Notes: generated from the letters alone by a model not told the origin. A stretch of DNA of 64,000 nucleotides from Escherichia coli (GCF_009931435.1 NZ_CP043414.1); one strand, 5' to 3'; positions 5,739 through 62,934 are shown, counted from the first letter of the stretch. A program made the numbers and translations.

Positions 5739-7424
5739 TTGAAGAAGGTTTGGCTTAACCGTTATCCCGCGGACGTTCCGACGGAGATCAACCCTGACCG
5801 TTATCAATCTCTGGTAGATATGTTTGAGCAGTCGGTCGCGCGCTACGCCGATCAACCCGCGTTTGTGAATATGGGGGAGGTGATGACCTTCCGCAAACTG
5901 GAAGAACGCAGTCGCGCGTTTGCCGCTTATTTGCAACAAGGGTTGGGACTGAAGAAAGGCGATCGCGTTGCGTTGATGATGCCTAATTTATTGCAATATC
6001 CGGTGGCGCTGTTTGGCATTTTGCGTGCCGGGATGATCGTTGTAAACGTTAACCCGTTGTATACCCCGCGTGAGCTGGAGCATCAGCTTAACGATAGCGG
6101 CGCATCAGCGATTGTTATCGTGTCTAATTTTGCCCACACTCTGGAAAAAGTGGTTGATAAAACCGCCGTTCAGCACGTTATTCTGACCCGTATGGGCGAT
6201 CAGCTATCCACGGCAAAAGGCACGGTAGTCAACTTCGTTGTTAAATACATCAAGCGTCTGGTGCCGAAATACCATCTGCCAGATGCCATCTCATTTCGCA
6301 GCGCACTGCATAACGGCTACCGGATGCAGTACGTCAAACCCGAACTGGTGCCAGAAGATTTAGCTTTCCTGCAATATACCGGCGGTACCACTGGTGTGGC
6401 GAAGGGCGCGATGCTGACTCACCGCAATATGCTGGCGAATCTGGAACAAGTTAACGCGACTTATGGGCCGCTGTTGCATCCGGGCAAAGAGCTGGTGGTG
6501 ACGGCACTGCCGCTGTATCACATTTTTGCTCTGACCATTAACTGCCTGCTGTTTATTGAACTGGGTGGGCAGAACCTGCTTATCACTAACCCGCGCGATA
6601 TTCCGGGGTTGGTAAAAGAGTTAGCGAAATATCCGTTTACCGCGATAACCGGCGTTAACACCTTGTTCAATGCGTTGCTGAACAATAAAGAGTTCCAGCA
6701 GCTGGATTTCTCCAGTCTGCATCTTTCTGCAGGCGGTGGTATGCCTGTTCAACAAGTGGTGGCTGAACGTTGGGTGAAACTGACCGGACAGTATCTGCTG
6801 GAAGGTTATGGCCTGACCGAGTGTGCGCCGCTGGTCAGCGTTAACCCGTATGATATTGATTATCATAGTGGTAGCATCGGTTTGCCGGTGCCGTCGACGG
6901 AAGCCAAACTGGTGGATGATGATGATAATGAAGTACCACCGGGTCAACCGGGTGAGCTTTGTGTCAAAGGACCGCAGGTGATGCTGGGTTACTGGCAGCG
7001 TCCGGATGCTACCGATGAAATCATCAAAAATGGCTGGTTACACACCGGCGATATCGCGGTGATGGATGAAGAAGGATTCCTGCGCATTGTCGATCGTAAA
7101 AAAGACATGATTCTGGTTTCCGGTTTTAATGTCTATCCCAACGAAATTGAAGATGTCGTCATGCAGCATCCTGGCGTACAGGAAGTCGCAGCTGTTGGCG
7201 TACCTTCCGGCTCCAGTGGTGAAGCGGTGAAAATCTTCGTAGTGAAAAAAGATCCATCGCTTACCGAAGAGTCACTGGTGACCTTTTGCCGCCGTCAGCT
7301 CACGGGCTACAAAGTACCGAAGCTGGTGGAGTTTCGTGATGAGTTACCGAAATCTAACGTCGGAAAAATTTTGCGACGAGAATTACGTGACGAAGCGCGC
7401 GGCAAAGTGGACAATAAAGCCTGA
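5739..7424 (+). CDS. fadD: Long-chain fatty acid--CoA ligase
   Basis: ORF 5673..7424; start set at in-frame TTG ([13 protein letters not shown]...) for 561 aa; AMP-binding motif [12 protein letters not shown]. Confidence 0.85.
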
Positions 7425-7443
7425 GCGTTAAGTCAGTCGTCAG

Positions 7444-7469
7444 ACGCCGGTTAATCCGGCGTTTTTTTT
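7444..7469 (+). terminator. Rho-independent terminator of fadD
   Basis: acgccgg-ttaat-ccggcgt stem followed by T8. Confidence 0.6.
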
Positions 7470-33281: not shown

Positions 33282-33695
33282 ATGGCTAATAAACCTTCGG
33301 CAGAAGAACTGAAAAAAAATTTGTCCGAGATGCAGTTCTACGTGACGCAGAATCATGGGACAGAGCCGCCATTTACGGGTCGTTTACTGCATAACAAGCG
33401 TGACGGCGTATATCACTGTTTGATCTGCGATGCCCCGCTGTTTCATTCCCAAACCAAGTATGATTCCGGCTGTGGCTGGCCCAGTTTCTACGAACCGGTG
33501 AGTGAAGAATCCATTCGTTATATCAAAGACTTGTCACATGGAATGCAGCGCATAGAAATTCGTTGCGGTAACTGTGATGCCCATCTGGGGCATGTCTTCC
33601 CCGACGGGCCACAGCCAACGGGTGAACGTTATTGTGTTAACTCAGCCTCTTTACGCTTTACCGATGGCGAAAACGGCGAAGAAATCAACGGTTGA
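33282..33695 (+). CDS. msrB: Peptide methionine (R)-S-oxide reductase MsrB
   Basis: ORF 33252..33695; start set at [10 protein letters not shown] (137 aa); two CxxC zinc motifs and catalytic RYCVNSASL. Confidence 0.9.
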
Positions 33696-33736
33696 AAAAA
33701 CGATTCAGCAACTTATTCCACAGGAGCGGAAAATTT

Positions 33737-34009
33737 ATGAATCTTGATGACATTATCAACAGCATGACGCCTGAGGTATACCAGCGTTTGTCGACAGCCG
33801 TTGAACTGGGTAAGTGGCCAGATGGCGTTGCGCTGACCGAGGAACAAAAAGAGAACTGCCTACAGCTGGTGATGCTGTGGCAAGCCCGCCATAATACCGA
33901 AGCACAGCATATGACAATTGACACACATGGTCAGATGGTTATGAAGAGCAAACAACAGTTAAAAGAAGATTTTGGTATCTCAGCAAAGCCTATTGCCATG
34001 TTTAAATGA
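33737..34009 (+). CDS. yeaC: DUF1315 protein YeaC
   Basis: ORF 33692..34009; start set at MNLDDIINSM (90 aa). Confidence 0.8.
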   Translation: MNLDDIINSMTPEVYQRLSTAVELGKWPDGVALTEEQKENCLQLVMLWQARHNTEAQHMTIDTHGQMVMKSKQQLKEDFGISAKPIAMFK

Positions 34010-34177
34010 TTGAATTATTCAGCTTTTTGAGTCTGTTATTAAGTGCGAACAAAAATACTTGTTTGACGTCTTGATTGTTCGATTTAGCGGTTGATAGGTT
34101 AAATGCAACACTGACGAGTATAACCTGGCCTACGATGTCAATGAGGAAATGTAGGCCAGAGATGTATTCAACTAATA

Positions 34178-34819
34178 TTACTCCTGCGTCTCTTCCCAGT
34201 CTGCCAGCGTATATAGCGTTGCCCCAGCTGCTGACATCTCCATAAACGCGTGCGCACTGTCCTGTGGCTGGATATTCACGCCACGACAACCATCGGTAAT
34301 CACATTAACCTTATAACCTAACTGTAACGCGTCCAGCACGGTAAACTTCACGCAATAGTCAGTAGCCAGGCCCATAATGATCAATTCATCGATTTCATGA
34401 TCGCGTAACCAGTCATCGAGCGTGGTTTTCTGCCGACGGCCGTTATCAAAAAAGGCACTGTAACTGTCAACTAAAGGATTTTCGCCTTTATGGAACACCG
34501 CTGCGATCGCTTTTTGGTTCAGTAACGGATGTAATTGTGCGCCTTCACTGTTCTGCACACAGTGATCTGGCCAGAAGGTTTGTGGCAAACCGTCGAGTTG
34601 GCCTGGCGTATAAGGCTCTACACCGTGCTGACTGGCAAAACTGCCGTGATTCGCCGGGTGCCAGTCTTGACTGGCGATAACCGCTTCACCGCGCGACTGG
34701 CACCAGTCAATCAGGCGGTTAGCGACATCCACCGTACTGTCACCTTCCGGCACGGCGAGCGCGCCACCAGCACAGAAATCATTTTGTAAATCGACCAGTA
34801 ACAGGGCGCGAGGGGGCAT
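34178..34819 (-). CDS. pncA: Nicotinamidase / pyrazinamidase
   Basis: ORF 34178..34837; start set at MPPRALLLVDLQNDF (213 aa). Confidence 0.9.
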   Translation of the reverse strand: MPPRALLLVDLQNDFCAGGALAVPEGDSTVDVANRLIDWCQSRGEAVIASQDWHPANHGSFASQHGVEPYTPGQLDGLPQTFWPDHCVQNSEGAQLHPLLNQKAIAAVFHKGENPLVDSYSAFFDNGRRQKTTLDDWLRDHEIDELIIMGLATDYCVKFTVLDALQLGYKVNVITDGCRGVNIQPQDSAHAFMEMSAAGATLYTLADWEETQE

Positions 34820-34829
34820 TGCAGTCTCC

Positions 34830-35846
34830 TTAATCATCCGGCGTCAGTTCGCCGCGCAGGTTTTGGCTCATGGCCTTGCGAATGGTTTCAGTATCCAGTT
34901 CCTGGCTAAGCAGGTAATGCAGTTTGGTTAGCGTGGCTTCTACAGTCATATCTGCACCGCCAATAACGCCGGCATGGGCGAGGGCGTTACCAGTGGCATA
35001 ACCCCCCATGTTCACTTTGCCGGACATACATTGTGTCAGGTTGACTACCACAATTCCGCGATCGCTGGCTTCTTGTAATTCTTGCAGGAAGGCTTTGTTT
35101 TGTGGCGCATTACCCACGCCATATGAGCGCAGAATCAATGCCTTCACCGGTTGGCGCAGAAAATTGCGCACGACGTCAGCAGAAATCCCTGGATAAATCG
35201 TCACTACGCCAATCGGTTGTGGGGTGATTGGATGAACGATCAATTCCCCTTCACCGTGCGGGGCGGGTGGCGTATTCAAACGACGAATATGGATACCTGC
35301 TTCCAGTAACGGAGGAAGGTTTGGAGAGGCAAACGCATCAAAACCATCGGCATGGGCTTTGGTGGTACGGTTGCCACGATAAAGTCGATTATTAAAAAAG
35401 AGAGTTACTTCGTTGATAGGATAATTCGCCGCAACGTACAACGCATTCAGCAGATTAATTTGTCCGTCAGAGCGTAACTCAGCCAGCGGGATTTGTGACC
35501 CTGTCACAATGACCGGTTTACCGAGATTCTCGAGCATGAACGACAGCGCAGAGGCGGTATACGCCATCGTGTCGGTGCCGTGCAGAATGACAAAACCATC
35601 ATAGTCGTCATAATGCGCTTTAATATCTTCAGCAATATGCTGCCAGTCTTCTGGCGTCATATCTGAAGAGTCCATCAGCGGCGTATATTCATGAATGGTG
35701 AAATCTGGCATCTCCGGGCGATGGAATTCCGGCATCAGCGCCAGTTGGCGTTGTAGATGACCTGACACCGGAATATAACCCTGCTCGGAACGCTGCATCC
35801 CGATGGTCCCGCCCGTGTAGGCGACGTAAATTGATTTCTTTTGCAT
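34830..35846 (-). CDS. ansA: Cytoplasmic L-asparaginase I
   Basis: 338-aa ORF MQKKSIYVAYTGGTIGMQRS... Confidence 0.9.
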   Translation of the reverse strand: MQKKSIYVAYTGGTIGMQRSEQGYIPVSGHLQRQLALMPEFHRPEMPDFTIHEYTPLMDSSDMTPEDWQHIAEDIKAHYDDYDGFVILHGTDTMAYTASALSFMLENLGKPVIVTGSQIPLAELRSDGQINLLNALYVAANYPINEVTLFFNNRLYRGNRTTKAHADGFDAFASPNLPPLLEAGIHIRRLNTPPAPHGEGELIVHPITPQPIGVVTIYPGISADVVRNFLRQPVKALILRSYGVGNAPQNKAFLQELQEASDRGIVVVNLTQCMSGKVNMGGYATGNALAHAGVIGGADMTVEATLTKLHYLLSQELDTETIRKAMSQNLRGELTPDD

Positions 35847-35977
35847 GATATTGATATGAATGATATCGAAAGAGCAAAAGTATATACGTGAGGGGCAGCG
35901 AGCGCACCTGGATACTCTGTGGATATGAGAAAAGTCCGGCAGAACGGAGGGATTAGTGTCCCGCCGGAGAAAAGTGG

Positions 35978-36700
35978 TTAATCCTGCAACGCATAGGTTA
36001 CGGTGGTTACTACGCGTACCGTTTTATTAATCGCCGTAGGATCATCTTCATCACTGCCACTGGCGAAGATCTGGAACACGCCTTGTGAGGCATCGCTAAT
36101 TGACCCCACCTGGCTACCTGAGTCCGTTGCAAATTGTAATGCTGCGTTGCGTGCATCTTTGGTGGCGGCGGCAATCATCTCAGCGCGCAGTGCGCCAATA
36201 CCATTAAAGCGATAGGCGACTTTGCTCTCAGCGATAGCGCCCTCCGTAGCGACTTGCAGTTCGTTTAATTTCGCGACGACTTTTTCGACAGCAGCAACAT
36301 TATGGGTTTTTATCGTCACTGACCCGTCTGCGTTATAGCGTGGCATTGTGGGATCATCTTTCAGATAAAAGGAATCTGTTCGCTTGCTTGTCCATTGGCC
36401 CAGGGTTATCTCTTTCTCGTTAATCCCCTGAGCATTGAGTTCGGCAACAATTTTTTTCTGCGCGTCTTCCAGTTTCGGGAACAGTTCGCCGGGAATATTA
36501 CCCTTAAAGTTAATCGCAATTGTTAATTCTGCCGTATCTGCGCGAACTTCTTTTTCAGAAAGCCCACGCACATTTACATAACGGTTATTGGTTTTTAAAT
36601 GTTTAACACCATCGCCAACAAAATAACCACAGGCGCTAATCCCCAGTCCGAGGACGATAGCGGCAATTAAAGAGGGGGCCTTATTCACTGATGACTCCAT
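35978..36700 (-). CDS. SIMPL/DUF541-like (YggE/BP26-like) exported or membrane-anchored protein; not expected between ansA and sppA in K-12
   Basis: ORF 35978..36790; probable start at Met31 (MESSVNKAPSLIAAIVLGLGISACGYF, hydrophobic signal/anchor) or at in-frame GTG 36688, which has GGAG 6 nt upstream. Confidence 0.6.
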   Translation of the reverse strand: MESSVNKAPSLIAAIVLGLGISACGYFVGDGVKHLKTNNRYVNVRGLSEKEVRADTAELTIAINFKGNIPGELFPKLEDAQKKIVAELNAQGINEKEITLGQWTSKRTDSFYLKDDPTMPRYNADGSVTIKTHNVAAVEKVVAKLNELQVATEGAIAESKVAYRFNGIGALRAEMIAAATKDARNAALQFATDSGSQVGSISDASQGVFQIFASGSDEDDPTAINKTVRVVTTVTYALQD

Positions 36701-36803
36701 ATCAGATGCTAAATGAGCAAGGGAATGTAGTGGAGAGAGGGAGTGAAAGACAGTCCGATTCAGGAGTGTGGCCGACAGCATATCGGCCACATTTTTGCAG
36801 GAT

Positions 36804-38660
36804 TTAACGCACGTTGGCGCAGGTCAGGCAAAACGCATAACGGTTTTGTGGGTCGTTAAACGCTGCCAGCTTGTCGCTTTCACTTTTAACGGTAGAGGCT
36901 ACCGAGGCCAGCGGTGCAGGTAACATGGCCTGGAACGCATCTGGCAACATTGCCCGGACAGAACCAGACATATTGTCCATCACTTTGTCGAAGAAGGTCG
37001 GTTCATCAACGTAGTATTCCAGATGCCACTGTTTCACTTTTGCCAGCTCTGCTGCTTTGGCAACCGCATCATCGAAATCTCCGAGACTATCGACCAGCCC
37101 GTTAGCTTTTGCATCCTGACCGGTCCAGACGTGGCCCTGGGCGATTTTATCAATCTGCTCCGGCGTCGAATGACGCGCATCAGCAACCAGCGTGATAAAG
37201 CGTTTATAGCCATTCTCAATGCTTAACTGCATCATCTGCTGCGCTTCCGGCGGCAGTGCCTTGGTGATAGAAACATCCGCCAGCGGTGAAGTTGAGACGC
37301 CATCGGTATGAACACCAATCGAATCCAAACTATTTTCTACGGTAGTGATCACGCCGAAGATACCGATAGAACCGGTCAGGGTGCTGGGGTTAGCCACAAT
37401 GTAATTAGCTGGCGTGGAAATCCAGTAACCACCAGATGCCGCCATGCCGCCCATCGATACAACCACAGGCTTACCCGCTGCCCTGGCGGCTGCCAGTTCA
37501 GCGCGAATCACTTCAGAGGCGGTAACGCTGCCGCCAGGGCTATTAACACGCAGAACAATCGCTTTCACTTTCGGGTCAAGGCGAGCGTCGCGGATTTGTG
37601 CCGCAGTGGTATCACCGCCAACATTCCCCTGAGTTTCCTCGCCATCCATAATTGCGCCATTCGCGAAGACGACACCGATGCTGTCACCGGTATCTGCCGG
37701 CGTTTTCAATGCGTAATCGTAATAACTGATGGCGCGATAATTTTTATCAGTCTTACTCCAGCCGAACTCTTTGGTCAGAGCTTTTTCGATTTCGGCACTT
37801 GATGCCAGTGCATCGACCAGCTTGTTTTCCAGCGCATATTTCGCGGTATCGCCACCTGTTTTGGTTAAACCCTCAAGCAACCCTTGCGCACCAGGGAATA
37901 CCTGCTGAGCAGGGATCTGCCGGTTAGCGGCAACAGTATTCAGATAGTTTTGCCACAGCTCACCGATCCAGCGGCTGTCAGCTTCGCGGGCTGCCGGTGA
38001 CATATCATCACGAATAAACGGTTCAACGGCAGATTTATACGTACCCACGCGGAACACATGGGTGGAGACTTTCAGCTTATCCAGTAACGATTTGTAGTAC
38101 AGACCGTTGGTAGCAAAACCGTGCAGATCCACCACGCCTTGTGGAGATAGCCAAATTTTGTTGGCGAAACTGGCGAGATAATATTGCCCCTGGCTGTAGT
38201 TCTCGCCTATGGCATAAACTGGCTTCCCGCTGTCACGAAACTCTTTCAGGGCTTTGCCGATGTACTGCATAGACGGCTGGTCGCCGCCTGCGAAGTTTTT
38301 CAGATCCATCACGATACCGGTGATATTGCGGTCGTCCTTCGCCTGGCGAATGGTGTTGACGATATCAAACAGTGAGTTTTCCTGCAGACGGTCGGAACTG
38401 GCACCAAGGAGCTGGCGGCTTAGCTTACTAAACCGCTGAGAACTGTCGGGTTTATCGACGATTACACCAGATATGTCCAGCAGCAGCGCGCCACGACTGG
38501 CCGTTTCTTTCGAATCACCACCTCTGACCTGCATCCAGATCCCCACACCAACCAGTACGAGAAAAATAAAGAACAGGTTAAGTACCATTTCACGGACGAA
38601 ATTCAGCAGACGCCACGTCCATTTAAAAAATCCGGCAATAAATCGCCAAAGGGTTCGCAT
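36804..38660 (-). CDS. sppA: Signal peptide peptidase A (protease IV)
   Basis: ORF 36804..38804; start set at [14 protein letters not shown] (618 aa). Confidence 0.9.
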
Positions 38661-38820
38661 GTATTCTCCCAACTTAAGGTCACACCTGTCACAGGCGCAA
38701 TAGATGTGGTTATCGTAATGACCCAACCGGCACTTGTCAGCAGGAATTGCGGACTGTGCTGTAACAAAATCCACTCTCGTGTTAATTTTGTGAATAAATA
38801 TCATGACAGGAGTTAATCAA

Positions 38821-62775: not shown

Positions 62776-62934
62776 TGTTGACTCCGAGTGCTGGTTATCT
62801 ATCCAGTGTAACAGGCGGGGAGCGATTAAAAAAGAGGCGGGTCGATGACAAAGGTTACACCATGAGACGTGCTACGCCTGTCAGGCCTATTCGACTCCTG
62901 CAATGTATTGAATTTGCATAGTTTTGTAGGTTGA

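Follow-up and report, generated by a model that had tools for sequence, protein, structure and literature searches.

A SIMPL-domain gene between sppA and ansA of Escherichia coli, absent from K-12, that probably encodes an N-terminally anchored envelope protein

A 64,000-nt stretch of DNA from Escherichia coli (GCF_009931435.1, NZ_CP043414.1), hereafter the window, carries between ansA and sppA a gene that is absent from the K-12-type genomes examined. We consider it likely, with a probability of roughly 0.8, that this is a functional accessory gene whose 236-aa product is an envelope protein of the N-terminally anchored SIMPL branch, a branch represented by the Simpl-like protein of C. jejuni. 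The gene itself is not new: it is annotated as Z2800 in EDL933, which has been public since the EDL933 genome, and as WP_001030438.1 in RefSeq, which names the gene in the carriers examined, and its Pfam family has been described and includes relatives of solved structure. The smaller points that we add are a deletion allele with a single scar and hyper-divergent borders, a lipobox confined to Escherichia, and a link to a published Z2800 peptide.

Results and Discussion

An intact gene in a widened spacer

The spacer between ansA (34830..35846, minus strand) and sppA (36804..38660, minus strand; 618 aa, 1857 nt), both placed by the ORF list and RefSeq annotation, measures 957 bp in the window (35847..36803) and 166 bp in a K-12-like genome (O16:H48), as had been anticipated in an earlier note on this DNA that contrasted a spacer of about 960 bp with a short one in K-12. 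Its sole long minus-strand ORF is intact and has its 3' end at 35978. The ORF list, Pfam and the RefSeq annotation of 100%-identical loci together define a coding sequence of 236 aa with a GTG start (35978..36688, minus strand); the RefSeq/PGAP start, the GTG at 36688, was taken from a locus 100% identical to the window across the 1,451 nt compared. The protein is identical to WP_001030438.1, "SIMPL domain-containing protein". An alternative in-frame ATG (36700..36698) would yield 240 aa, and the 236-240 aa ORF at 35978..36700 described in the earlier note thus stands, with 236 aa by RefSeq and 240 aa from the ATG. A GGAG Shine-Dalgarno element read from the sequence (36698..36695, within a block at 36695..36700, minus strand) lies 6 nt 5' of the GTG and overlaps the alternative ATG, and the surrounding block TGATA.GGA..CATCAGTG is kept in every Escherichia species aligned.

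Two longer gene models were rejected. A 270-aa ORF with a GTG start at 36790 overlaps the hairpin downstream of sppA, and its N-terminal extension falls outside the RefSeq gene model; the 267-aa EDL933 annotation is an over-extension that runs into the same hairpin. The mechanically called sppA ORF (36804-38804, minus strand) is likewise longer than the annotated gene (666 versus 618 aa), and its 48 upstream codons, which overlap the divergent ydjA start region, are probably not translated.

The GC content of the SIMPL gene is 47.7% (GC3 45.6%), against 51-52% (GC3 52-55%) for sppA and ansA. With a gap of ~4 points, the description of its composition as native holds only roughly, the gene being slightly low.

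A SIMPL protein of the C. jejuni type

The resemblance to SIMPL/DUF541 proteins that had been noticed from the sequence was borne out by the profile search proposed with it, in which Pfam family PF04402 matched over the full model (positions 1-205 of 205, E=3.2e-18, 67.2 bits). The domain occupies residues 38-232 in 236-aa numbering (35993..36577, minus strand), according to Foldseek and a Pfam match at 42-236 on the 240-aa form. All homologues listed bear PF04402, barring one short fragment (P0119). An AlphaFold2 (AF2) model built from a 30-sequence alignment (pLDDT 84.9) has an N-terminal helix (residues 4-31) that leads into the β-α-β lobes of the SIMPL fold. Searched against the PDB with Foldseek, it matched 7C50 (E=1.2e-16, TM 0.64/0.76) and Brucella abortus BP26 (4HVZ, E=2.4e-11), the further matches being noise (E above 8e-5, rmsd ~18 Å). 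By phmmer, the best solved relatives are 10AM (E=1e-27) and 7C50/7C51 (E=4e-26), at ~30-35% identity over the whole length; the alignment to 10AM covers roughly residue 8/9 to 236 and thus includes the N-terminal segment.

These entries represent the C. jejuni Simpl-like protein, which is similar in length to the window protein (231 versus 236 aa) and shares its N-terminal hydrophobic segment, after which come R.V.V.G...E..AD and, further on, the common motif MI..AT..AR.AA..FA.DS.S..G.I..ASQG. Entry 10AM is named "Periplasmic protein" and comprises nine chains of 231 aa. Unlike the window protein, the C. jejuni protein has no Cys or lipobox, comes from a distant organism and differs at ~65% of residues. 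In the family alignment, G16, G21, G25, R36, V38, V40, G42, E45, M171, A175, T176, A179, R180, D189, S190, G195, Q202 and G203 are invariant, and the conserved domain motifs are R36-x-V-x-V-x-G and the block EMIAAATKDARNAA..FA.DSGS.VG.I..ASQG. By informal criteria, the window protein belongs to the C. jejuni SLP-like, N-terminally anchored SIMPL subfamily. A search of the available literature on SIMPL/DUF541 turned up no publication that deals with this subfamily or describes entries 7C50 and 10AM.

The protein had been described in the earlier note as being of the YggE/BP26 type, which is right as to the family, through the Pfam match and the BP26 fold, and wrong as to YggE orthology. The NCBIfam YggE equivalog (NF008299) scores 19.5 bits (E=5e-4) against a cut-off of 249, so the protein is not a YggE orthologue and is better placed in the C. 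jejuni SLP-like branch. E. coli YggE shares with the window protein its species and its SIMPL/DUF541 domain and is periplasmic, but it is encoded at another locus and is not known to carry a membrane anchor. The family takes its name from mammalian SIMPL (IRAK1BP1), a eukaryotic signalling adaptor of the cytosol, which has only the Pfam domain name in common with the window protein, and no functional parallel is implied. BP26 (Omp28) of Brucella is an exported envelope protein of the same Pfam family and fold, but only 16% identical to the window protein in the structural alignment, and it has a cleavable signal peptide and not a conserved Gly-rich anchor. BP26, an immunodominant protein of the envelope whose localisation is debated, is reported to bind the matrix proteins collagen, vitronectin and fibronectin in vitro (PMC7697752). 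Nothing suggests that the window protein is an adhesin.

A lipid or a transmembrane anchor

The N-terminal hydrophobic anchor proposed from the sequence is well founded. Codons 1-25 (36614..36688, minus strand) encode an export or anchor segment, MNKAPSLIAAIVLGLGISAC followed by GYFVG, which we delimited by alignment, a lipobox script and the AF2 model. Its hydrophobic stretch runs for 22 residues, from A4 to G25, and is modelled as part of one continuous helix over residues 4-31. This segment would direct the protein to Sec export and tether the SIMPL domain on the periplasmic side of the membrane.

In E. coli the segment (MNKAPSLIAAIVLGLGISAC20-GYFVG) also satisfies a lipoprotein rule, which we applied by script in the style of PROSITE: K/R in the n-region, an uncharged h-region, and [LVI][ASTVI][GAS]C with the Cys at position 15-35. 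Here K3 is followed by an uncharged h-region and by the lipobox I-S-A-C, with Cys at position 20 (codon at 36629..36631). The sequences from E. albertii, Escherichia sp. E1V33, Escherichia sp. MOD1-EC7003 and an enteric contig conform as well, as does homologue P0007, while that of E. fergusonii breaks the rule with a Val at -1. Among ~76 non-Escherichia homologues from reference genomes, only one, from a Micavibrio, conforms. The idea that the whole family consists of lipoproteins was therefore dropped, the lipobox being limited to the Escherichia clade and this one Micavibrio homologue.

For E. coli, we lean somewhat towards lipidation, in which LspA would cleave at Cys20 and the lipid-anchored protein would be sorted by Lol to the outer membrane; we rate this at slightly better than an even chance. 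The destination would follow from the established "+2 rule" of Lol sorting, since Gly occupies position +2. Only a little short of an even chance goes to the alternative that the E. coli protein is a bitopic inner-membrane protein with an uncleaved signal anchor, in which Cys20 is a mere membrane residue. Cys20 is missing in 26 of the 30 aligned homologues and, among orthologues, is confined to the Escherichia clade. Elsewhere in the family, and possibly here, the same segment would be an uncleaved Gly-rich transmembrane helix. The conservation pattern points the same way: Gly16, Gly21, Gly25 and Gly27 do not vary within the family, GYF(V/I)G follows the Cys, and conservation in the anchor is highest after Cys20 (GYFVGDG), which together with the continuous AF2 helix favours an uncleaved transmembrane anchor. 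The length of the hydrophobic stretch, the non-canonical Val of E. fergusonii and the alignment with 10AM from residue 8, by which the deposited sequence includes the N-terminal segment, also suit a signal anchor. Set against it are the full lipoprotein rule satisfied in E. coli, E. albertii, E1V33 and MOD1-EC7003, and the name "Lipoprotein" given to one UniRef cluster of this protein. The positive-inside rule is not clearly obeyed by the charged residues on either side of the hydrophobic stretch.

Distribution in E. coli and across the genus

The gene is present in 943 of 5,426 complete E. coli genomes (17%) and absent from ~83%. Each carrier has a single chromosomal copy, always at the same site, and the remaining genomes match the flanks only; in all 943 carriers the match covers at least 99% of the query length. 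The carriers fall into two bands of identity. About 585 genomes, including O25b:H4-ST131, whose protein is identical to that of the window, are at least 99% identical to it, and ~358 genomes, including O157:H7 and O145:H28 (WP_001030441.1), lie near 97.9%.

In every Escherichia species examined the gene lies between sppA and ansA. The order sppA–SIMPL–ansA recurs in Escherichia sp. E1V33 and Escherichia sp. MOD1-EC7003 (proteins 94-96% identical), in E. albertii (86%) and E. fergusonii (70%), and on one enteric contig whose SIMPL protein is 67% and sppA product 90% identical. The 90%-identity UniRef cluster also includes E. marmotae and one Shigella flexneri sequence. Outside Escherichia, the nearest relatives are environmental or metagenomic sequences of at most 58% identity, and identities of ~33-39% are found in Bacteroidales, Synergistota, Micavibrio, Thalassospira, Parasutterella and others.

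An ancestral gene and a shared deletion allele

The synonymous divergence of the gene resembles that of its neighbours. Relative to O157, dS is 0.08 for the SIMPL gene, 0.12 for sppA and 0.11 for ansA; relative to MOD1-EC7003 it is 0.30, 0.30 and 0.19; and relative to E. albertii 1.2, 0.73 and 0.69, respectively. The gene is under purifying selection, with a dN/dS of 0.05-0.12 over all comparisons with the window, which is 2- to 8-fold more relaxed than that of sppA and ansA.

Gene-less spacers were compared from five genomes, namely the K-12-like strain, AST262, APEC O2-211, FDAARGOS_1287 and EH2252. They are near-identical to one another and have one common structure: the sppA stop codon is followed by 35 nt with a hairpin (GTGGCCGAC…GTCGGCCAC), a U-tract, and 131 nt up to the ansA ATG. 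In the window, the distance from the SIMPL stop codon to the ansA ATG is also exactly 131 nt, so the alleles differ by 790 nt at 35978..36767 (957 = 36 + 790 + 131, against 35 + 131 in K-12). The five empty genomes examined thus carry one shared 790-nt deletion allele.

Taken together, the shared synteny, neighbour-like dS, constrained dN/dS and single scar support vertical inheritance of the gene from an ancestor of the genus Escherichia and its later loss in K-12-type lineages, and not a recent insertion. The same reading had been offered in the earlier note, which was also correct that the gene is missing from the K-12 site and that no mobility genes flank it: none appear in the ORF list or annotation of the locus, and no identical copy occurs at this site in the K-12-like genome. 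The only flanking repeat, a perfect 10-nt inverted repeat bracketing the extra DNA (35980-35989 and 36795-36804), was tried as the mark of a mobile element and rejected. Neither E. albertii nor E. fergusonii conserves its arms, the indel border is the hairpin (36767) and not the repeat, and by our estimate 1.6 kb of sequence should contain about one such 10-nt pair by chance; we judge it a chance occurrence. On repeats, integrase or transposase genes and patchy spread across related species, the locus does not qualify as a genomic island.

That the gene is nonetheless a recent horizontal islet, acquired by the ST131 and O157 lineages, is in our view very improbable. Such an origin would fit the placement of Z2800 in the O157-island protein section of PMC3681748, the GC content ~4 points under that of the neighbours, and the environmental or metagenomic provenance of the closest non-Escherichia relatives, none above 58% identity. 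It conflicts with the identical position of the gene in E. albertii, E. fergusonii, E1V33, MOD1-EC7003 and the enteric contig, with dS values that track the flanks (0.08 versus 0.11 within E. coli and 1.2 versus 0.7 to E. albertii), with the lack of mobility genes and of a conserved inverted repeat, and with the one scar common to all five empty alleles examined. We give equally little credence to the view that the ORF is a decaying relic, functionless in E. coli. The gene is dispensable, being missing in ~83% of genomes, no clear promoter was found, and truncated database entries of 220, 198 and 143 aa exist, mostly from partial contigs; but all 943 carriers cover at least 99% of the query length, dN/dS is 0.05-0.12 in each comparison, and a peptide has been detected in EHEC.

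The borders of the indel are unusually divergent. Carrier and empty alleles are 64-69% identical in the ~70 nt (ansA side) and ~40 nt (sppA side) that border it, while the flanks of the window are 94-100% identical to the K-12-like genome, and a border patch of the empty allele matches E. albertii at 47 of 57 positions versus 45 of 65 for E. coli carriers. Such borders suggest either that the haplotypes are older than ordinary E. coli diversity or that one of them was introgressed. We speculate that the sppA–ansA spacer is a long-lived presence/absence polymorphism and that, if balancing selection or introgression maintained it, the protein could be a lineage-specific envelope factor of pandemic ST131 and of EHEC O157/O145. 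In that case a Gly/Ala-to-Cys change in what was ancestrally a transmembrane anchor would recently have made it an outer-membrane lipoprotein, and it would help in colonising the host or in surviving stress. The scenario as a whole is a long shot.

Expression and regulatory features

Hansen et al. 2013 (PLoS Pathog; PMC3681748) reported phosphotyrosine Y68 on Z2800 (NP_288200.1), and their supplementary table gives the Z2800 peptide TNnRyVNVR with a Mascot score of ~46. This peptide corresponds to residues 33-41 of the window protein, and Y68 in the numbering of the 267-aa O157 form (AAG56753.1, "orf; hypothetical protein [E. coli O157:H7 str. EDL933]") is Y37 in 236-aa numbering. The match in both peptide and numbering identifies the window gene as the orthologue of EDL933 Z2800, the product of which was therefore detected in EHEC, through a single modified peptide of moderate score.

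A scan of 35700-37000 yielded neither a sigma-70 consensus promoter nor a strict-consensus terminator; a weak -10-like TACATT lies at 36729..36724 (minus strand). After the SIMPL stop codon there is a terminator-like hairpin (35927..35967, minus strand; RNA fold -18.3 kcal/mol, z=-4.7) with an 11-bp stem (35936..35967) followed by ACUUUUCUC, which the strict scan did not call because its U-tract is short. A second hairpin, GUGGCCGAUAUGCUGUCGGCCAC, lies on the sppA side (36768..36790, minus strand; RNA fold -17.8 kcal/mol) and has no U-tract in the window. The U-tract is absent here in the E. coli, E. albertii and E1V33/MOD1-EC7003 carriers and present in K-12-type genomes and E. fergusonii, so that a canonical sppA terminator is a feature of the deletion allele and not of the carrier allele. 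Read-through from sppA is thus plausible in E. coli carriers, and part of the transcription of the SIMPL gene may come from this source. Between this hairpin and the gene, a 24-nt block, CTCCTGAATCGGACTGTCTTTCAC (36743..36766, minus strand), is conserved in the alignment of all six Escherichia sequences, including E. fergusonii, and may be a regulatory site.

Possible function

As for what the protein does, we tentatively put forward a non-enzymatic role, probably with self-association, in the envelope or in protection against stress, of the kind proposed for YggE and BP26, while regarding it as rather doubtful. No obvious catalytic constellation was found in the family alignment of the SIMPL domain, and self-association would be expected by analogy with the BP26 multimer and the nine chains of 10AM. 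Genomic context offers no partner. ORFs were called in 85 loci and their 794 proteins clustered, and every neighbour family was limited to at most 8 of the 70 loci from outside Escherichia, from which we conclude that the SIMPL gene stands alone. Explanations in terms of an anti-phage defence system or an RNA family were discarded, with 0 PADLOC-DB families at E<=1 and no Rfam match in or near the spacer. The gene would be dispensable in most conditions, and this would explain the wide spread of the deletion allele.

It is unlikely that the gene encodes a second YggE, that is, a soluble periplasmic protein relieving oxidative stress like the YggE of K-12. Both the equivalog score of 19.5 bits against a cut-off of 249 and the conserved membrane anchor of the window protein, which YggE is not known to have, speak against this. 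In its favour, the two proteins share a Pfam family, and E. coli YggE is reported to protect cells from oxidative stress (PMC5118699, citing Kim 2005 and Acuña 2009).

The gene provides a clean case of an ancestral Escherichia gene that is absent from K-12 and has thereby been missed by functional genomics done in K-12. Two lineages of medical importance, ST131 and O157:H7/O145:H28, have kept it. Since the SIMPL family has no accepted molecular function, we suggest that an E. coli member would be a practical starting point for its study, the pathogens that carry it being genetically tractable.

Other observations in the window and the compared genomes

Some genomes carry insertion sequences close to the spacer. 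An IS200/IS605-family tnpA lies between the SIMPL gene and sppA, in the upstream region of the SIMPL gene, in E. coli 24A16CRGN010 (6133-6591 of locus L093, equivalent to ~36700-36800 of the window); this genome (H33) is the one examined out of ~nine (H33-H41) in which the match spans ~700 extra bases. In E. coli EH2252 (302-1458 of locus L092), IS600 interrupts ansA, adjoining the empty spacer.

On the other side of ansA, the ydjE–ydjL cluster is absent from the window at 33692-34837, where pncA abuts yeaC and msrB, whereas the cluster adjoins pncA in the K-12-like genome, ST131 and O157. The pncA–yeaC/msrB arrangement also occurs in E. fergusonii, Escherichia sp. MOD1-EC7003 and APEC O2-211. 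Collinearity with the pncA–yeaC arrangement extends to about 1,095 of the 5,426 complete E. coli genomes, and only ~16 of these also have the SIMPL gene. In O157:H7 TW14359 (1-1126 of locus L087), ydjE is annotated as a pseudogene with its N-terminus missing. Finally, the sole two matches above the Rfam gathering threshold in the 64-kb window are the sRNAs sroD (7383-7468, plus strand, 115 bits) and ES036/CssrF (62883-62925, minus strand, 42.9 bits).
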